Positions 18,241-61,423 of a stretch of DNA of 64,000 nucleotides are shown piece after piece (positions within the stretch are counted from its first letter, which is position 1; the number at the start of each line of letters is the position of its first letter). The notes under the pieces are model-generated. The model saw only the letters and a list, made by a program, of their open reading frames with translations, was not told where the DNA came from and made no database searches. Where the stretch lies: the NCBI GenBank assembly GCA_964637115.1, contig CAZWVL010000001.1, forward strand, positions 32,001-96,000. The letters run 5' to 3'. The DNA comes from an uncultured Methanosarcinales archaeon. GTDB taxonomy: Archaea > Nanobdellota > Nanobdellia > Woesearchaeales > ARS49. The translations under genes and the position numbers were made by a program.

Positions 18241-18978
18241 TTGAATAAGTCAGACTATGATATGGAAGACGAAATGCCATTGGCAGTCATTGCTGATTCG
18301 CACAAAGAACTCTGGAATATGTATCGTAATGTCAGCGCACTTGCTGAGATAGACTGTCATACCACAGATTCGCGCGAAGATGTTCTTAACAAATTGCCAG
18401 ATGCGAAACTCCTAATCGTGAACAAGCAAAACTTGTCTTTTGCAGGAATGGCGCGCGGTGCAGGATATAAAGGAAGAGTTGTATTCGCAACCGGCGGAAA
18501 TGTGCAATATGGAGATTACAAAGAACTTGGCGTGGATGAAGTCTTGATGAAACCATTTAAAACTTCTGAATTACAAGGAATAATCACGAAACACACTTCT
18601 CCACAGAAACGCATACTGATAGTTGAAGATGACGGAACAACTCGCTTAGCATTGTCAACAAAAATCCGCAAAATGGGCTACATTGCTTCGACAGCATTAA
18701 ATGCTGAAGAAGGAATGGAGAAATTTGTCTCAGTGCACGCAGTTATAACAGATATAAGTCAGCCTAACAGCCAAGGAGGTTACTGGCTTCTCGACAAAAT
18801 AAGAGAAAAGTATGATGGAAAGCAACTTCCAGTCGTACTCATGAGCTCAATGGACATTGATATTGGAAAAGCTCAAGGAGCCAATGCATTCATGTCTAAG
18901 CCATTCGAAATGAGCATATTAGAAAAGATTGTGGACGCCGTAGTCCCGCAACATTTAAAACCAAACAGAGAGCAATAA
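18241..18978 (+). CDS. tandem response-regulator receiver (pseudo-REC + REC) protein
   Basis: C-terminal domain ILIVEDD...VITD...LMSS...SKPF; N-terminal domain keeps MKPF but has Asn in place of the acceptor Asp; exact start uncertain. Confidence 0.8.
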   Translation: MNKSDYDMEDEMPLAVIADSHKELWNMYRNVSALAEIDCHTTDSREDVLNKLPDAKLLIVNKQNLSFAGMARGAGYKGRVVFATGGNVQYGDYKELGVDEVLMKPFKTSELQGIITKHTSPQKRILIVEDDGTTRLALSTKIRKMGYIASTALNAEEGMEKFVSVHAVITDISQPNSQGGYWLLDKIREKYDGKQLPVVLMSSMDIDIGKAQGANAFMSKPFEMSILEKIVDAVVPQHLKPNREQ

Positions 18979-18983
18979 TTCTC

Positions 18984-21389
18984 GTGACAAACTTTTATCC
19001 GACGGATATAACATATACGGTAAAGAACGGCAAGCCAATAATACAGCTCTACGGCCGCACGACAGAAGGAAAACAGATTTGCGTACTGGATGAGGACTTT
19101 GAGCCATACTTCTACGTTGTTGGCAACGTGGATAAAGAAGTACTAAAGGCACTAAAACAAGATGACTATCAAGTTGTCAAAATAGAAAAAGTAAAGAAAA
19201 ACTTGAATGAACATCCAATAGACGCTTTCAAAGTTTTTGTCAACATACCAAAAGGAGTTCCAGCGCTAAAAGATTTGGCAAAAGAACTGCCTGGCGTGGA
19301 CGGAGTCTACGAATACGACATTCTTTACACGCGCAGATATCTCATTGACAAAGGAATTATTCCATTAACATTGACAACAGTTGAAGGCAAAGAAGTTCCG
19401 TGGCAGTCAAGAGTACCGTGCATCAAAGCAGAGAAGATAATGCCAGCAAGCGATGAGATACTTAATCCGAAACTGCTTGCTGTTGACATTGAGACTTATA
19501 ATCCGGACAATAAAATGAACCCGAAAAAGAATCCCATTCTAATGATAGGTTTGTACGGCAAAGACTTCTCAAGAGTTGTAACGTGGAAAAAGTTTGAGAC
19601 GCAAGAAAAGTATATAGAATTCGTGCCGACAGAAGCAGACATGCTGCAAAGATTTGTGGAACTTGTGAATGATTTCGGTCCGGACATGATTGTAGGCTAC
19701 TTCACAGACGGATTTGACTTTCCCTACATTGATGAGCGCGCTAAGGTGAACAAAGTCAAGATAGACATTGGCCTTGATTACAGTAACCTTGAAATTTTCG
19801 GCAAACAACAGTCAGAGGCAAAAATCGCCGGATTAGCGCACATAGACATCTTCAAATTCATCAGAAAAGTCATTGCTCGCTCGCTAAAAACAGACAGTTA
19901 TTCACTTGATGCAGTTGCCGGAGAACTGCTTGGAGAAAGAAAACACAAAGTAGACATGGAAACGTTCTTCAAAGCATGGGACAAGGGCGGAAAAGAACTT
20001 GAAGAGTATTGCAGGTATAACCTGCAGGATTGTATTTTAACGTATAAGCTTACAGAAAAAGTATTGCCTAACTTAATCGAGTTTGTAAGAATAATCAGGC
20101 TGCCGCCATACGACATAAACAGAATGACATTCTCAACATTCGTAGAATGGTACTTGATGAACCAAGCAAGCGCCAGAAATGAAATATTGTTGAACAGGCC
20201 GAACAAAAGAGACGAACTTGCCAGAATGGGCGACAGAATCAAAGGAGCGTTTGTTTACGAGCCAAAACCAGGATTCTACCAGAACATAGCAGTATTTGAC
20301 TTCAGAAGCCTGTACCCGAGCATAATTGCTTCGCACAATATCAGCAAAGGAACACTGAACTGTGATTGCTGCAAAGATACACCAAATGTAGAAACAGAAA
20401 GAGGAACATTCTGGTATTGTGCAAAAAGAAAAGGACTCTTTAGCACGGTAATTTCAGATTTAATTGTACGCAGAGGAGAAATTAAAAAACAATTGAAAAC
20501 ATCAAAAGACCCGCTGCTTGCTGCACGTTCGGAAGCGCTGAAAGTGCTTGCAAATAGCTTTTACGGCTATATGGGATTTGCGCCGGCAAGATACTATAGT
20601 ATAGAATGCGCTGAGAGCACAACAGCTTGGGCAAGACACTATATTCATAAGGCAATTGAATCTGCACGGCAAGCCGGATTTACGGTCCTTTATTCAGATA
20701 CTGACTCAGTGTTCCTGCTTTTGGATAAGAAAACGAAAGAGGATGCTCTGGCATTAATGGAAAAAATTAACAAAGACCTTCCCGGATTAATGGAGCTTGA
20801 CTATGAAGGACATTATCCAGCAGGCATCTTTGTTTCGCTGAAAGCAGGAGAATCAGGGGCGAAGAAAAAATATGCTTTGATTGATGACAAAAACAACATG
20901 AAAATCAAAGGTTTTGAAAGCGTCAGAAGAAACTGGAGTGCAATTGCGAAAGACGTCCAAAGAAAAGTGCTTGAAATAATCCTGAAAGAGCACGACGCAA
21001 AGAAAGCAAAAGATTATGTGAAAACGGTTGTTGACGAACTGAGAAAAAACGCAATTCCGCTGGACAAAGTAGTTGTTCACACGGCATTATCAAAAGGAAC
21101 AAGCTCTTATGCAGCTATCGGACCTCACGTTGCAGCCGCGCAAAGAATGGAAGCGAAAGGGCAATCGGTAGGAGCAGGAAGCGTAATTCATTACGTAGTC
21201 ATCAAAGGCAAAGGCAAGATAAGAGATAAGGTCAAGCTGCCGGAAGAAACAACGCAGGAAGAGTATGACGGAGAATATTACATACAGAATCAAGTCCTGC
21301 CAGGCGTAGAAAGAATATTTGCAGTTTTAGGAATAAAAGTGGATGACTTGGTAAGTTCCACAAAGCAGAGCTCGCTGGCGGGATTTTAG
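18984..21389 (+). CDS. polB: archaeal family B DNA polymerase
   Basis: Exo I DIETY; DFRSLYPSII; KVLANSFYGY; YSDTDS; N-terminal PYFY and EYDILYTRRYLID; no intein. Confidence 0.97.
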   Translation: MTNFYPTDITYTVKNGKPIIQLYGRTTEGKQICVLDEDFEPYFYVVGNVDKEVLKALKQDDYQVVKIEKVKKNLNEHPIDAFKVFVNIPKGVPALKDLAKELPGVDGVYEYDILYTRRYLIDKGIIPLTLTTVEGKEVPWQSRVPCIKAEKIMPASDEILNPKLLAVDIETYNPDNKMNPKKNPILMIGLYGKDFSRVVTWKKFETQEKYIEFVPTEADMLQRFVELVNDFGPDMIVGYFTDGFDFPYIDERAKVNKVKIDIGLDYSNLEIFGKQQSEAKIAGLAHIDIFKFIRKVIARSLKTDSYSLDAVAGELLGERKHKVDMETFFKAWDKGGKELEEYCRYNLQDCILTYKLTEKVLPNLIEFVRIIRLPPYDINRMTFSTFVEWYLMNQASARNEILLNRPNKRDELARMGDRIKGAFVYEPKPGFYQNIAVFDFRSLYPSIIASHNISKGTLNCDCCKDTPNVETERGTFWYCAKRKGLFSTVISDLIVRRGEIKKQLKTSKDPLLAARSEALKVLANSFYGYMGFAPARYYSIECAESTTAWARHYIHKAIESARQAGFTVLYSDTDSVFLLLDKKTKEDALALMEKINKDLPGLMELDYEGHYPAGIFVSLKAGESGAKKKYALIDDKNNMKIKGFESVRRNWSAIAKDVQRKVLEIILKEHDAKKAKDYVKTVVDELRKNAIPLDKVVVHTALSKGTSSYAAIGPHVAAAQRMEAKGQSVGAGSVIHYVVIKGKGKIRDKVKLPEETTQEEYDGEYYIQNQVLPGVERIFAVLGIKVDDLVSSTKQSSLAGF

Positions 21390-21430
21390 GCAAAACTTTA
21401 AAACACCTCCTTCTATTTATCAATAAAAAA

Positions 21431-22657
21431 ATGGTGAGCAACGAGTTAAAGAAAACAGCGCAGCAGCTGCTAGACCTGACGGTGCGGTTATCTGACGCTA
21501 TAGAAGCAAATGATTATTCAAAAATTCCTTCAATGCTGAGCGAATTTGATGCGCGGCTAAACGCGTTTAACTATTTCGCAAGAAAAGAATCGCCAGCCTT
21601 TCTTGAAGACAGGCGTTCAGTGCTTTCAAATGAAGAAAACAAATTGCGTCAAAACCCTTTCAGGTCTCCAAATGATTTCAAAGGAGCATCCATTATAGCG
21701 AGCAACATTCTGCGCATCCTGCAAAAAACACTTGACTTCTTTGAAGGCAAGCTCCCTGACCCGGCCAATCGATACATCATATATGCGCTCGCTCTTGTTT
21801 TCAGCATCTATCGTTACCGCATTCAGGCAAATGAGGAGCGCGTAGCGGCAATATTGGTAACCAAAGAACACGAAGAATTGTTCAGCGGCAACAGCGAACG
21901 CATCCTGCCAGAACACGGCAGGCACGCGGAAGATAATGCATTAATACAGGCAAGCAAAAAGAAATATGACGTTGCCGGGTCAACGATATTCATTTCCAGC
22001 TTGCCATGCTACAGAAAAAAAGTCCTTCAATTGCAGACTGAGAATAACAATGTTCTGAGCTGGAAAGTGGTTCGGCATACTGACGCACAATATATGGGGC
22101 AGACAATAACATGGAAAAGAGCGCAGCTACGAATGCCAAAGGCACAATACTGGACTGTAGATTTCATGCCAGGAGTACCTGTTTATGAAGTTTATTTGGA
22201 TCCTGAAAGGACAAAATCAGAAGTGTATTACGTATATGACGGCGTATTCCTGCCAAAAGAGCTTAGAAATTACTTTTCTGACGCATCAGGCAGATACGTC
22301 GAGATAGAAGAAGGATGCGCTGTCATGCTTGCAATGATGGGAATCAAGCAAGTATTCTATTTATATTATGAAGAGCTATACGCAAAAGCTATTAATTTCC
22401 TCAAAGAGAGAAATGTGCTTATTGACTTGATAGAGCACGTTTTAACCATTCAAAAGTATGAAAGCAAACAGCTAAGAACTGAAAAAATTGATCTTTTCCA
22501 CAACATAATGTCAAAAGCAAAACATCCAGAAGCAAAAAATCTGGATGAGATACGCCAATATGTCTTTCAGCTCTGTGAAGAGCTCGAAATCTCAGATCCA
22601 TACGAATTCATGAGGAAAAAATTCGGAATTGATTTCCCAGAACTTCTCAAGGCCTAG
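21431..22657 (+). CDS. zinc-dependent nucleotide/nucleic-acid deaminase-like protein with split Cys motif
   Basis: RVAAILV, H165-A-E167, GSTIFISSLPC193, then C296-AVMLAMMGIKQVFY: CDA/dCMP-deaminase core order with 102 residues between the two Cys. Confidence 0.7.
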   Translation: MVSNELKKTAQQLLDLTVRLSDAIEANDYSKIPSMLSEFDARLNAFNYFARKESPAFLEDRRSVLSNEENKLRQNPFRSPNDFKGASIIASNILRILQKTLDFFEGKLPDPANRYIIYALALVFSIYRYRIQANEERVAAILVTKEHEELFSGNSERILPEHGRHAEDNALIQASKKKYDVAGSTIFISSLPCYRKKVLQLQTENNNVLSWKVVRHTDAQYMGQTITWKRAQLRMPKAQYWTVDFMPGVPVYEVYLDPERTKSEVYYVYDGVFLPKELRNYFSDASGRYVEIEEGCAVMLAMMGIKQVFYLYYEELYAKAINFLKERNVLIDLIEHVLTIQKYESKQLRTEKIDLFHNIMSKAKHPEAKNLDEIRQYVFQLCEELEISDPYEFMRKKFGIDFPELLKA

Positions 22658-23405
22658 TTTGTTTGCCGAGATACCCGTTATAGCAAAGGTTTGCTTTTAG
22701 AAGTTGCTTGAATGTCTTGGATGATGGACAGAGCGTATCATTCTCTCTTTCAAACTTCTCGTGCTCAACAGTTGTAATCTGGAACTCGCAACGATGAATA
22801 TGACGGATATCGCCAGGCTTTGGCAATTCATCAGCAAGCGGACTGCGATAGATATCAGAACCTTTGTACATATATCGAACAGAAAATGAGCCTCCAAACG
22901 GATCACCAAATGAGAATCCAATGAACGTCTCGAGTTCAGGGTGTTTCAGTGCACCATCGTATACTTTTCCCTTGTATTCGACAAGCTGAGAAAAACTGTT
23001 TCCATTTTTATGAACTGCATCCTCTACAACATTCGCTTCATTTGCATCAAAATTTGGCGGAATGAGCAAGATACCCTCTTTACCGGCCTGACGGGCAAGA
23101 TCGCATAATGCCGCATTCACATTAGGAGCTTTTGTCCAAATATCTGCCGCTCCATTTATTGGTTTTCCATTGGCATATGAAAACTTCACAACAACGGGCT
23201 TCTTTTTAGTCGTTAAAGCATACACAACATTAGGACTTCTTTCCATAAATCCAGCATAAAAAAGAGTGTCAACAGCATCCTTCAAAGTCTTTGGGATAAT
23301 CTCACCATTCACATCGACAGACCCTTCAGCAACCTGGAAAACAGTATCTTCAACTACAATGCGCGCGATATTTCCTTTATTCCTGAATGCTTCTATCAAC
23401 TTCAT
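22647..23405 (-). CDS. hypothetical protein
   Basis: 252-aa ORF, ATGA-coupled to RNase Z-like gene. Confidence 0.65.
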   Translation of the reverse strand: MKLIEAFRNKGNIARIVVEDTVFQVAEGSVDVNGEIIPKTLKDAVDTLFYAGFMERSPNVVYALTTKKKPVVVKFSYANGKPINGAADIWTKAPNVNAALCDLARQAGKEGILLIPPNFDANEANVVEDAVHKNGNSFSQLVEYKGKVYDGALKHPELETFIGFSFGDPFGGSFSVRYMYKGSDIYRSPLADELPKPGDIRHIHRCEFQITTVEHEKFERENDTLCPSSKTFKQLLKANLCYNGYLGKQTRP

Positions 23406-24358
23406 CGTGTTTTCTCAAAGATTTGTGCTGCTTCAGCAATCAACTGTTCAGGATCATAACGCTGGCTGAAATGCATCAGCACAAGCTCTCCCACATTGCA
23501 AGCTTTTGCAATTTCAGCTGCCTGCGAAGCAGTAAGGTGATGATTCTTCCTTGCAATGTCAACATCAACAGAAGAATGATTGGATTCACAATATAAAATA
23601 TCTGCGCCTTTTGCAATCTGTGCAACCTTTTCTATGGTTCCATCCTCGAACACAAAATCAGTAACGTAAACAACACGCTTGCCCTTGCGTGTTTCCAGCA
23701 GAGCGGAAAGCTCATCAAATTGATACTGCTTTCCACCAATGTGCATAGGATGTTTTGTTTCTTTTTCAGCCTGGGTTTTCAAAGCCTCGAGCCAGGGACC
23801 AGGACGTAAATTCGAATCAGCCAGCGCTTCCTTGGAAATTCCAACGCGATCATATTCCTCGAACACATATCCGAGTGAAGGAATTCCGTGATTCAGTTCA
23901 ACAAAACGAATGCGATAATCAGGAGTTTGGTGAATGACGTCTCCTGTTAATTGTGTTTTTCTGGTAATTTTTCCTTCAAGATCATCAGAAATGGAAATAG
24001 AAGTTTTAGTCATTTCACCCTTGTCAAGTTCGCAAATGTCAACAAGAACGGCGCCACGACCTGCAAGATTCCACGTGTATGCCTTGATTTTTGAACGCAC
24101 GGAATTGGTAATTCCGTTCGGACCAAAAACAGTCACGCGTTTGTTTTCTGCATGCTGCTTTAAGCCAACAATCTCGTCAAAGCCGACGAAATGGTCCATA
24201 TGGGTGTGAGAAATGTAAACATTTGTCAAAGGCTTGACAAGGTCCATTCCATAAGATGCCCGGCCGCAGTCAAACAGGTGTGTTTCAGAGCCAAATTTCA
24301 CGTACACGCCCGGACTTCGCTTCTCCCCATTCAAAAAACCAGTTTCCATTTCATGCAC
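23402..24358 (-). CDS. rnz: RNase Z-like MBL-fold hydrolase
   Basis: LFDCG, SHTHMDH, LNHGIPSLGY, PGPW exosite, YVTD, HHLTASQAAEIA, LMHFSQRY. Confidence 0.8.
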   Translation of the reverse strand: MHEMETGFLNGEKRSPGVYVKFGSETHLFDCGRASYGMDLVKPLTNVYISHTHMDHFVGFDEIVGLKQHAENKRVTVFGPNGITNSVRSKIKAYTWNLAGRGAVLVDICELDKGEMTKTSISISDDLEGKITRKTQLTGDVIHQTPDYRIRFVELNHGIPSLGYVFEEYDRVGISKEALADSNLRPGPWLEALKTQAEKETKHPMHIGGKQYQFDELSALLETRKGKRVVYVTDFVFEDGTIEKVAQIAKGADILYCESNHSSVDVDIARKNHHLTASQAAEIAKACNVGELVLMHFSQRYDPEQLIAEAAQIFEKTR

Positions 24359-24433
24359 TCGACTAACACGGGTGAATATACCCTTATTTTTAAACCTTTG
24401 TATTGTTTAATTACTTTATAGTGGTGAATATGG

Positions 24434-24447
24434 GAAAGATTTAAATA
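24434..24447 (+). promoter_or_regulatory. BRE-TATA promoter
   Basis: gaaagatttaaata, 22 nt before ATG 24470. Confidence 0.65.
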
Positions 24448-24469
24448 TGTCCCTTTATTAATTCTATTT

Positions 24470-25984
24470 ATGAAAAAGACACTTGCAGCGCTCTTGATGG
24501 CAGGAGCATCGCTTATAGGATGCGATAAACCAAAGCAAAAATTGGTAATTCAGCCTATTGAGCAGACTGTCAAAGTGCAGAGGCCTGTAAGCGATAATCA
24601 AGCGGAATCTGAAGACGAAGCACAATTGAGAAAACTCATAGAAAAAGAGATGCGAAAACAGGATGCCTGGGCAGCAGATGTTGTGCGTCAAAACTATACC
24701 ACTGCAGAAGGCACTGAATGGGTCAGCTTAGTTCGTGAAAAAAAGATGAAAAGTGAAAAACTTATCGGCCACATTGCCGCATACAGCGAAAAAGACGACC
24801 AAATCATACTGCCAATGAGCGAAAAGCCAGAGGAAGACGCGCAGCTTATCGATGCTGTAGACCACGAGCTCTGGCACGTAATATTTGATCACGAAGGAAA
24901 CAAGGGAGTTTTCTTTGGCAAAAACTACAAAGGGCCAACTGAAGCAGACGTTACAGCACACTGCAATGCAAAAATGATGCAGCCAGAATACGCAAAACTC
25001 AAACAAGATGTCAACATCAGCCTTCGACTGGATGCAATTAACAGAAAAATCAACGACCTTGCCTCTTTCTACTCAAACCTTCTGATCCAATCATTAGAGA
25101 AGCAAACCAAGATTTCAAAAGAGCTTGAAGAAATGCCAGAAAAAACTCTTGGATTTATATCAGAAGCAGACAGGACAAAAGCAAATGAAACACTCCAACG
25201 CGTCCAGGAATCATACACAAAGCTTCGAGAAGAGTTTATGAGCCTAAAAAAATGGTATGAGCAAAGTCTTGTCCCGCTTGGCAATTCAGCACTTACACCT
25301 GAACGCATTTCATCCATTGAAAAAGAAGTTGAGCAGAAAGCAAGTTTGCTTCAGCCGCACGCAAGCTTAGGAAAGGATACTGAAAAAGCAAGCGATTTGA
25401 TCTACACTATTGTTTTTGCGGCACAAGACAAAGCACACGAAGCACGTGTTGCAGAACTAAAAAAGCAAATCGAAGCCAATGAATTTGGCAGGCGTGAAAC
25501 ATATGAAAAACGCCTCAACTCTGAAAATAAGTTTCACGAATTGAGCAAAGAAATGCGTTCTCTACGCAAAATGAACCTTTCAGACTTAAATATGTCACGA
25601 CTTGATTCCGTTATGGGCGAGCTGAAAGGCAGCTTAAATGAGCAAAGGCTGAATGATATTTTCAGCCCAAACGAAACAATGGCGCGCATTGTAGATGCAA
25701 TGTACAGCCTTGACTTCGGCCAGCCAACACTACAGAAATTCCAGCCGTCTGAAAATGATTTAGAATTCCTTTTACGCTTCACCTACAGAGGACAGCCGCT
25801 ATTCCGAAAAGGTGTCGAAAAGTACAGGCTTGGAATTCAAATGACAAAGGACGGCATTACGCCTGAAAAAATCAAGGAACAGCTTGAGTATGCCACGGAA
25901 TTCTCGTACAAAGGAAAAACGTACAGCTGGCCGGAAACAGACTTCAGAATAAAGGGCTCCATACCACATGATGAAAAAGATTAA
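24470..25984 (+). CDS. putative lipoprotein with HExxH zincin-like motif
   Basis: Lipobox SLIGC; DHELWH; long helical region; later NETMARI. Confidence 0.7.
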   Translation: MKKTLAALLMAGASLIGCDKPKQKLVIQPIEQTVKVQRPVSDNQAESEDEAQLRKLIEKEMRKQDAWAADVVRQNYTTAEGTEWVSLVREKKMKSEKLIGHIAAYSEKDDQIILPMSEKPEEDAQLIDAVDHELWHVIFDHEGNKGVFFGKNYKGPTEADVTAHCNAKMMQPEYAKLKQDVNISLRLDAINRKINDLASFYSNLLIQSLEKQTKISKELEEMPEKTLGFISEADRTKANETLQRVQESYTKLREEFMSLKKWYEQSLVPLGNSALTPERISSIEKEVEQKASLLQPHASLGKDTEKASDLIYTIVFAAQDKAHEARVAELKKQIEANEFGRRETYEKRLNSENKFHELSKEMRSLRKMNLSDLNMSRLDSVMGELKGSLNEQRLNDIFSPNETMARIVDAMYSLDFGQPTLQKFQPSENDLEFLLRFTYRGQPLFRKGVEKYRLGIQMTKDGITPEKIKEQLEYATEFSYKGKTYSWPETDFRIKGSIPHDEKD

Positions 25985-26079
25985 GTTTTATATAAATTCT
26001 ACAGGTTAAATATAAAACGCTGAAAGACAATCATATAGAAACTACATCTTAAAAGAGGCAAGTACTGGAGGGAGTGACA

Positions 26080-26226
26080 ATGGAGCCAATAAAATACTTT
26101 GATGCAGTAGATATGGTAGAGCCGCACTGCAAGGGATGCCAGCATATCATGCATTACGACAAAGACGCTACTTTTGACAACGAAAAACAAGTATTGAACT
26201 GCAGATATTGCGGAACTGTTCTATAG
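26080..26226 (+). CDS. 48-aa zinc-finger protein (not in ORF track)
   Basis: MEPIKYFDAVDMVEPHCKGCQHIMHYDKDATFDNEKQVLNCRYCGTVL; strong SD ggagggagtg. Confidence 0.75.
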   Translation: MEPIKYFDAVDMVEPHCKGCQHIMHYDKDATFDNEKQVLNCRYCGTVL

Positions 26227-60241: not shown

Positions 60242-61324
60242 TCACTTCTTGCGTAATTCCTTAAGCATTTCGTAAACTTTTTCTCCGTCATCAATTCCAA
60301 TAAGCTTCTTCTTAATTACAGAAAAATGATAGACATTCTCAAGTTTGCCAAGACCATCGTTTAATCCCCTGTTAATTTCTTCAAAAGCGGAATCAAACCT
60401 TTTAAACGCCTTCAAGCGCTGTTCATCATTTTCTGCAGCAAGTAAATCAAAACTACCCGCAAAGAAACATTCATATTGAGCCAAAAACCAATCGCGTTCC
60501 AAATATTTTTCCTTCGTCATTTCCTTGGCCCACCGATACTTGGAAATTTCATATAAGAAATCAGCTGCTTTCAGTTTGTCCTCTCTTGTGGTGGCTTCTA
60601 TCTTCAATCTAGTATTCACTGCACGCGCCTCTTTGTATGACAATTCCATTCCAGCAGCAATCAGTTCCAGCTTTTTATCGGCATTTCCGGGAAGCTTATT
60701 CAGTTCTTCCATCGCTCTTCCAGGCTGTTTACCTCCAGCACATGCACCCCAAAGACTCAAGTAAGAACGAGTATCATCTGGTTTTAATGTCACGCATTGG
60801 CGAAAGGCAGGCAACGCCTTGTCGTATTCTTTGAAGCGGCAATGAGTTGTTCCGAGGTAAAGCCACAATTCTGCATCATCTTGCTTGGCTGTAGTCGCAG
60901 CCTCCAAATGAGAAATGGCATCCTTGTACATTTGCATGGACAATTTTGATGCTTGTTCAGCTGATTCAATGCCATATGCATCTGTCAAAAGTTTCTTGCC
61001 TAAAGGAGGCAGCAACTCATAAGCGTGCAGTCCCTGAGCGGCTTTAAAAGTTTCGCGAGCAAGCTTGTCCTGCATTCTTAACAGGACTTCCTTGTGCTTA
61101 TTGTCATTTGAAAGCTTGACTACCTGCTTGTATAGTTCAGTTGCTTTCTCCCTGCTGCTCGGCTGATCGATCTTGTACTGCTGATTTTCACTCCACAACT
61201 TTTTTGATTTCTCAACAAGCGCTTCAATGTCTTCCTGAAAAATCACGTGCCGGTCTATCGGCAAATTGGTATAATTATGAGGAAGAAAAGCAAGCGACGC
61301 CGCAATAAGTTCCTTAAGTCCCAT
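60242..61324 (-). CDS. TPR-repeat protein
   Basis: AELWLYLGTTHCRFKEYDKALPAFRQCVTLKPDD; ATG 61324; reverse-strand aaaagctttaaaaa promoter-like site near 61360-61373. Confidence 0.75.
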   Translation of the reverse strand: MGLKELIAASLAFLPHNYTNLPIDRHVIFQEDIEALVEKSKKLWSENQQYKIDQPSSREKATELYKQVVKLSNDNKHKEVLLRMQDKLARETFKAAQGLHAYELLPPLGKKLLTDAYGIESAEQASKLSMQMYKDAISHLEAATTAKQDDAELWLYLGTTHCRFKEYDKALPAFRQCVTLKPDDTRSYLSLWGACAGGKQPGRAMEELNKLPGNADKKLELIAAGMELSYKEARAVNTRLKIEATTREDKLKAADFLYEISKYRWAKEMTKEKYLERDWFLAQYECFFAGSFDLLAAENDEQRLKAFKRFDSAFEEINRGLNDGLGKLENVYHFSVIKKKLIGIDDGEKVYEMLKELRKK

Positions 61325-61423
61325 TTGCACCCACTAATAGACGAGGAAATAGGTCTGTTTTTAAAGCTTTTGACCAATTTGTCAGAAAGTATTAATAGAC
61401 GTGTGTGTAGTAGTGGCTGGGGT

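Follow-up and report, generated by a model that had tools for sequence, protein, structure and literature searches.

A rare archaeal deaminase clade with a predicted beta domain between its zinc-ligand cysteines and a co-inherited partner gene

Deaminases of the CDA superfamily are recognised by an H(C)xE motif in helix 2, two cysteine ligands in a CxxC arrangement and a three-layer alpha/beta/alpha fold. Within the superfamily, the dCMP-deaminase/ComEB clade has among its shared derived features the HAExNA motif and a tyrosine between strand 4 and helix 4; the Tad1 and ADAR enzymes carry a three-stranded insert inside CxxC, which caps the substrate pocket; RibD has a short CxxC insert with a histidine; and nematode AID-like enzymes also have CxxC inserts (Iyer et al. 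2011, PMC3239186). Here we describe a deaminase gene in a 64,000-nucleotide stretch of DNA (the window) from an uncultured archaeon of the Woesearchaeales lineage ARS49 (contig CAZWVL010000001.1, positions 32,001 to 96,000), whose small genome measures 1.27 Mb at 98% completeness and would, by its size and gene content, suit a DPANN archaeon. The gene, an open reading frame at 21431–22657 on the forward strand, encodes a 408-aa protein, P0001, in which the PC...C zinc motif is split by about 100 residues, and lies next to a convergent partner gene with which it is inherited. P0001 and its few relatives form a rare, undescribed clade, and the evidence below makes it very probable that the protein is an active zinc-dependent deaminase of this new clade.

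Split zinc motif and inserted domain

The HAE triplet of P0001 comprises residues 165–167 (from nucleotide 21923, in the context HAEDNA), the PC pair residues 192–193 (22004–22009), and the second ligand cysteine, C296, lies at 22316 and is followed by AVMLAMMGIKQVFY. Exactly 102 residues separate C193 from C296, and the only further cysteine of the three in the protein is C382. An earlier note, made from the letters of this DNA alone, had proposed such a split motif, and the split proved to be real in the reading frame, in the Pfam and phmmer alignments and in all 11 known members of the family. Its positions for HAE and for the second cysteine were right; the one that it gave for SLPC, 22007, is the cysteine codon, and the string itself begins at 21998.

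The Pfam model PF00383 matched P0001 above its cut-off (31.4 bits against 25) at residues 131–194. This match is partial, covering profile positions 19–84 of 102 and ending at the PC pair. A phmmer search against solved structures aligned residues 164–195 with residues 69–100 (LHAE...SPCPD) of the dCMP deaminase of cyanophage S-TIM5 (4p9c), and in the same match aligned residues 296–325 with residues 101–129 (CSKMIAQAGVKKVYY). This two-part alignment indicates that the motif was opened inside PCxxC, just 5' of the second cysteine. When the family profile was compared with that of the canonical dCMP deaminases of related archaea (hhalign), the two were matched with 96.8% probability, over an alignment that covered the HAE..PC block only and left the gap unbridged.

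An exhaustive HMMER search of 1.84 billion representative proteins recovered 10 relatives of P0001, and a word-indexed homologue search returned almost none. One relative is 90% identical; the others share 24–34% identity over the stretches matched by HMMER and 19–28% across the whole alignment. Ten residues are invariant in the 11 members (A140, N154, H165, A166, E167, C193, E277, G295, C296 and Y310), in sequences only 18–38% identical to each other. The HAE motif of helix 2 and both cysteine ligands are thus retained throughout, the latter with a spacing of 101–110 residues (11/11) instead of the canonical two. Two markers of the dCMP clade are present in P0001: NA follows the HxE motif (the asparagine in 8 and the alanine in 9 of the 11 sequences), and the invariant Y310 follows strand 4. 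The score of P0001 with the ComEB equivalog TIGR02571 was 19 bits, short of the cut-off of 219. As far as such sequence markers tell, the clade branched from the dCMP-deaminase/ComEB lineage. Comparison with the 90%-identical copy gave a dN/dS of 0.18, indicating that the gene is under purifying selection, and with its intact catalytic set P0001 reads as a functional gene, not a decayed one.

We modelled P0001 with AlphaFold2 from the 11-sequence family alignment (mean pLDDT 84, pTM 0.73). The model shows an N-terminal four-helix bundle (residues 1–108, 21431–21754); a first part of the deaminase core (residues 110–193, 21758–22009) with the invariant N154, H165-A166-E167 and P192-C193; the insert domain (residues 194–295, 22010–22315); a second part of the core (residues 296–334, 22316–22432), in which C296 starts helix 3 and Y310 follows strand 4; and a C-terminal helical extension (residues 335–408, 22433–22654; modelled helices at 334–407). 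The helical domains that the earlier note had placed on both sides of the core are therefore recovered, as is a three-layer alpha/beta/alpha deaminase fold with all the catalytic residues. The N-terminal bundle is the least conserved part of the family (16% mean pairwise identity), and structure searches returned only generic helical-bundle matches for it. Superposition with dCMP deaminase puts the helix that begins at C296 over the CxxC helix of that enzyme, and on this basis H165, C193 and C296 are predicted to converge on a single zinc ion. In the mechanism that we propose, these three residues would bind the zinc and E167 would act as the proton shuttle.

The insert had been called aromatic and beta-rich, and it is both: 12 valines, nine tyrosines, three tryptophans and three phenylalanines are found among its 102 residues, and eight modelled strands fill residues 195–294. 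Its conserved residues are W228, E253, V265, P275, the invariant E277, R279 and Y281. The last four (P275, E277, R279, Y281) alternate along one strand and so lie on the same face, which may line or cap the substrate pocket, as the insert does in Tad1 and ADAR. Alignments to solved and viral deaminase structures extended over at most about 156 residues (136 for dCMP deaminases, RibD and TadA), and none of them covered the insert. A shape search of the ESM Atlas with P0001 returned ordinary deaminase clusters only. A language-model search with the insert alone gave a best score of 0.76, to which no meaning can be attached. Whole-model structure searches also yielded low-probability barrel matches (≤0.2) of the TTM/CYTH and GFP-like types, as well as isolated matches to START/Bet v 1-like (polyketide cyclase) folds whose reach is unclear.

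These features set P0001 apart from each of the nearest described enzymes. Relative to the dCMP deaminase/ComEB structures (4p9c/4p9e, human DCTD 2w4l and the PBCV-1 bi-DCD 7fh4), about 100 residues interrupt its PCxxC motif, its strand 2–helix 2 loop has no second zinc site, and helical domains are added at both ends; in the proposed history, the lineage would have lost that site and gained the four-helix bundle, the C-terminal helices and the beta insert. In addition, P0001 is encoded by an accessory gene with a cognate partner and not by a gene of pyrimidine metabolism, for which the genome has its own canonical kinase fusion. Tad1 and ADAR likewise hold an insert between the two CxxC cysteines, but theirs is three-stranded and poorly conserved, whereas that of P0001 is eight-stranded with invariant residues. 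ADAR enzymes carry the motif strings PCG...SCSDK; the core motifs of P0001, HAExNA and GCAV, are instead of the dCMP-deaminase type, and no ADAR or Tad1 chain was among the 50 matches listed in either structure search. In RibD/RibG, the insert is short with a conserved histidine, and the enzyme is fused to a reductase and serves riboflavin synthesis; P0001 has no reductase domain and is sporadic. CDAT8 (3g8q), which edits C8 to U8 in archaeal tRNA, has an intact CxxC and a THUMP domain, for which no Pfam match was found in P0001 at E values up to 1.

The earlier note had further held that free-nucleotide deaminases have CxxC and that a long insert between these ligands belongs to the ADAR/Tad1 enzymes. 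The position of the insert does agree with Tad1 and ADAR, but the strict rule fails, since RibD also interrupts CxxC, so that an insert by itself is no sign of a polynucleotide substrate. The principle of a CxxC insert is already known; what is new is the 100-residue beta domain, the architecture around it and the linkage to a partner and an RNase Z paralogue. This domain and architecture were absent from the libraries searched (Pfam, NCBIfam, PADLOC, PHROG and ESM Atlas) and from the literature, where our searches found no account of this family, so that the suggestion of a new deaminase family is borne out.

The family is also sparsely distributed. The family profile found no full-length match in 14 genomes of the same genus (including the unpublished G308, used for this carrier count only), none in 300 genomes of the class, and two carriers, G477 and G488, among 400 genomes of the phylum.

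A partner gene, an RNase Z paralogue and divergent alleles

The main functional clues beyond the earlier note are the co-inherited partner, the RNase Z paralogue and the extreme divergence of the alleles. The partner gene (P0012, 22647–23405, reverse strand) is convergent with the deaminase gene, with an 11-nt 3' overlap, and encodes a 252-aa protein without a recognisable fold; neither a Pfam, PADLOC or PHROG match nor a fold match was obtained. Homologues of the partner are convergent to the deaminase, with 3' overlaps of 0–15 nt, in six sequenced contexts (the window; L003; L052; L049/L050; L053–L055/L059; and L058, from another genus). Complex prediction for the two proteins with either alignment (A1, A2) scored 0.00, which weighs neither way. 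We consider it probable that the deaminase and the ~250-aa partner form a functional pair.

On the far side of the partner lies a gene for a 318-aa protein (range 315–318 aa) of the metallo-beta-lactamase (MBL) fold (23402–24358, reverse strand). Its stop overlaps the partner start codon (ATGA), and the two are therefore probably co-translated. With the RNase Z equivalog model, whose cut-off is 292.95 bits, the MBL protein scored 158.7 (156.9 when the genome was searched), compared with 322.9 for the canonical RNase Z encoded elsewhere in the genome (G000:C4). It retains the HxHxDH motif and a flexible arm with a GP motif (its NLRPGPWLEALK corresponds to PPGPVYQKIKKG in the B. subtilis enzyme); in RNase Z, this arm is the tRNA-binding exosite. 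With these motifs and a score short of the cut-off, the gene probably encodes a second, divergent RNase Z. An RNase Z paralogue adjoins the deaminase and partner in three lineages, and the complete trio recurs in a distant archaeon (P0011; L053, L059). All three cassette genes are under purifying selection.

The cassette is part of a 4.6-kb accessory segment (21390–25985) that extends from the stop of the family-B DNA polymerase gene (PolB) to a small zinc-ribbon gene and contains the deaminase, the 252-aa partner, the 318-aa MBL protein and a 504-aa lipoprotein gene. The segment is absent from the same-genus genome G242, where the PolB stop is directly followed by the zinc-ribbon gene and then by rpl15e. 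Comparison of this gap in three other loci of the genus (L046, L047 and L048) showed it to be empty in G242, filled with an NDK-like and an unknown gene in G303, and with glutamine synthetase (GlnA) and an AsnC regulator in G306.

Where the cassette is present in the genus, the deaminase and the partner differ far more than the genes around them. On the same-genus contig L004, the C-terminus of PolB is identical to that in the window at 47 of 47 residues, and the deaminase is 26% identical. At L052, the PolB tail (87%), L15e (71%) and the MBL protein (81%) are well conserved; the partner is 38% and the deaminase 27% identical in HMMER/BLAST local alignments, or 40% and 24% in the pairwise table. 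Overall, same-genus alleles share 24% identity in the deaminase, 37–40% in the partner and 81–83% in the RNase Z paralogue, which makes the same-genus deaminases as divergent as class-level relatives (22–23%). Nucleotide homology is lost at the PolB stop and begins again within the MBL gene, about 35 nt from its 3' end. The deaminase and partner thus appear to have been swapped as one unit, in the form of very old alleles, with the flanks on either side conserved. Between the window and L003, dS is 0.24–0.38 for the three cassette genes and 0.60 for the adjacent 3' part of PolB, which hints that the cassette was shared more recently between these two lineages.

Homology with the alternative allele L004 stops at 21395, immediately 5' of a TATA-like box, CTTTAAAA (21396–21403, forward strand), that lies 27 nt upstream of the deaminase ATG. 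An identical octamer precedes the ATG of rpl15e by 24 nt and an open reading frame at 60242–61330 on the reverse strand by 28 nt, and the presence of the box suggests that the deaminase gene may have a promoter of its own.

Possible substrates and roles

We regard P0001 as a candidate enzyme of nucleic-acid modification and not as a housekeeping protein. Its scattered occurrence, the variability of the locus and the extreme allelic divergence of just the two coupled genes point to a conflict-type role, as a toxin with its antidote or as a defence module, a reading that in our judgement could fall either way. A tRNA or another nucleic acid as the substrate, which we hold tentatively and slightly short of an even call, would fit the RNase Z paralogue, the YqeY-like fusion in one relative, the precedent of CDAT8 and the ADAR-like position of the insert. 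That relative, P0011, is a 736-aa deaminase with a much longer C-terminal part, whose end resembles the YqeY/GatB tail, a domain through which GatB and some aminoacyl-tRNA synthetases bind tRNA. The overall picture of an active deaminase of dCMP ancestry in a conflict-type cassette, with tRNA or another nucleic acid as its most likely substrate, is about as likely to hold as to fail.

In this scheme, the deaminase would be inherited as a unit with its cognate partner, usually with the RNase Z paralogue adjacent, and the pair would act as a conflict cassette that is sporadic, sits at a variable spot and exists as divergent alleles between conserved flanks. A more specific version is rather doubtful: an intracellular archaeal toxin–antidote or defence cassette in which the effector would be a deaminase of a new kind that edits tRNA or another nucleic acid, the beta insert would recognise the target, the tRNAs attacked would be processed or repaired by the dedicated RNase Z paralogue, and cognate alleles would be swapped like immunity-type polymorphisms. 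The anti-phage dCTP deaminases (AvcD/DCD) and the bacterial polymorphic-toxin deaminases (MafB19, DddA-type) share with P0001 the accessory, fast-evolving nature and the cognate partner, and matches to their models are weak; P0001 differs from them in lacking a P-loop kinase, secretion or trafficking domain and in its archaeal host. Polymorphic-toxin deaminases have a co-directional immunity gene of the Imm/SUKH type downstream, whereas the partner here is convergent and shows no likeness to the known immunity families.

Time and again, newly recognised clades of deaminases have proved to be editing enzymes, toxins or defence effectors, and they have supplied raw material for base editors. P0001 combines a dCMP-deaminase-type core, a conserved domain between the zinc ligands at the ADAR cap site and a co-inherited partner without a fold match, in a group of tiny, poorly understood archaea with almost no characterised conflict systems. 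The same-locus alleles (24% identity between flanks of ~80%) would offer a ready-made panel of specificity variants. Should the substrate prove to be tRNA, P0001 would join the very small number of archaeal deaminases known to edit or target tRNA; should it prove to be dCTP or dCMP, P0001 would deplete nucleotides with a new kind of structure.

Several findings weigh against a nucleic-acid substrate or a conflict role. The closest relatives by sequence and by structure act on free nucleotides, and an insert that caps the pocket might just as well admit small molecules only, as happens in dCMP deaminase. Calculated by domain and for the protein as a whole, net charge is close to zero, the insert included, whereas RNA binders usually have a basic surface; this measure says little about the substrate, however. 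The YqeY-like match of P0011 (E 4.8e-5, 23.9 bits) falls below the Pfam cut-off of 27. The RNase Z paralogue is missing beside the pair in two lineages (L049 and L058), and at L051 no partner gene lies within 8 kb of the deaminase. The partner gene would share its transcript with the RNase Z paralogue and not with the deaminase, an arrangement unusual for toxin–antitoxin pairs. Finally, the cargo of sister species at the same spot is metabolic, so the spot is not a dedicated defence island.

Some of these points lead to the best-surviving alternative, that P0001 deaminates a free nucleotide: dCMP, dCTP or a cytosine nucleotide that carries a modification. In that case the insert would be a lid closing over a small substrate, the cassette would manipulate nucleotide pools, for example by AvcD/DCD-like depletion, and the MBL protein would be a nucleotide phosphodiesterase. 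The top matches in sequence and structure are indeed dCMP and dCMP/dCTP deaminases; HAExNA and Y310 are markers of the dCMP-deaminase clade; the accessory-gene distribution would suit such a system; and the faint triphosphate-tunnel-type barrel matches may involve the insert. P0001 also matched the anti-phage dCTP deaminase model NF041025 (20.4 bits, E 2e-4) and the PADLOC dCTPase model (E 3e-4), but these scores are far below the cut-offs (400 bits for NF041025), and the N-terminus, unlike that of AvcD/DCD, is a four-helix bundle without a P-loop, so that the kinase domain is missing. Furthermore, the second zinc site is absent in a protein with three cysteines only, the neighbouring MBL protein retains the tRNA-binding arm of RNase Z, one member carries the YqeY-like fusion, and the genome already contains a housekeeping kinase–dCMP deaminase fusion. 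We consider a free-nucleotide substrate unlikely on this evidence, though a serious contender.

A second alternative keeps a tRNA or RNA substrate and dispenses with conflict: P0001 would be an editing enzyme with a dedicated RNase Z paralogue, acting on particular, perhaps atypical tRNAs of reduced archaea. The arm-bearing RNase Z paralogue, the fusion to a YqeY-like domain, the example of CDAT8 and the purifying selection on all three genes would suit this proposal. However, the absence of the gene from every other sampled species of the genus and from about 99% of the sampled phylum genomes, together with 24% identical alleles at a locus whose flanking genes are 81–87% identical, does not fit a conserved maturation step, and we judge it improbable.

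The earlier note had set the deaminase beside a uracil-sensing PolB, and a coupling of the two, in which the deaminase makes dU in DNA and the polymerase reads it, was therefore considered. The deaminase lies directly 3' of PolB in the window, L003, L004 and L052, and the PolB N-terminal domain (18984–19433) does keep most residues of the archaeal uracil pocket as described for Tgo and Pfu: equivalents of Y7, P36, Y37, P90, V93 and I114 are present, and P115 and F116 are replaced by L and Y. Nevertheless, the gene (18984–21389, forward strand) encodes the sole family-B polymerase of the genome, a housekeeping enzyme in the conserved left flank outside the cassette, whose orthologues are 73–87% identical across the genomes of the genus that were compared, all of which lack the deaminase family. 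The adjacency is specific to the genus: outside it, PolB does not lie next to members of the family. In sister species, unrelated genes occupy this intergenic position, and the deaminase gene seems to be served by a separate TATA-like box. A functional link to PolB is thus not supported and is largely refuted by the distribution, which leaves this coupling very improbable.

It is hardly credible that the insert is a mobile or spliced element or that P0001 is an inactive pseudo-enzyme: a cysteine does follow the insert as a possible +1 residue of an intein, but the ~100-residue insert starts with Y-R-K (not C/S/A), ends in EEG (not H-N), has no conserved TxxH, is present and conserved in 11/11 members and is confidently modelled as a packed beta domain, while the catalytic residues are all invariant and dN/dS is 0.18.

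Other genes of the locus and genome

The DNA of the stretch was found in freshwater-sediment and sediment metagenomes from two studies, among them several that could themselves be the source sample, and no RNA sequencing run was listed as containing it. The remaining gene of the accessory segment, outside the conserved cassette, encodes the predicted 504-aa lipoprotein (24470–25984, forward strand), with the lipobox LIGC, long regions resembling coiled coils and the motif HELWH, which is zincin-like. The gene is present in L003 and absent from L052, and its product gave no significant family match. The zinc-ribbon gene that bounds the segment is a 48-aa open reading frame (26080–26226, forward strand) with two CxxC pairs, upstream of rpl15e, and it was found in all the same-genus loci compared as well as in L052. 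At L051, the deaminase is faced by a convergent gene (L051:9217–12015, reverse strand) for a 932-aa protein with faint Ig-like matches only.

The canonical dCMP deaminase of the genome (353 aa; L001:904–1965, G000:C2) has the motif PCYKC and the second zinc site, and is fused to an N-terminal P-loop nucleotide-kinase-like domain. Such fusions are widespread in relatives (e.g., L024). The domain order is like that of the bacterial AvcD/DCD defence deaminases, yet the gene in this genome looks housekeeping. A 245-aa gene adjoins this fusion (L001:1978–2715) and appears NucS/EndoMS-like when its sequence is read without a family scan. Upstream of PolB, a response-regulator receiver gene (18241–18978, forward strand) ends 5 nt 5' of the polymerase start; its product is 29–40% identical within the genus, compared with 82–86% for PolB in the same three genomes.

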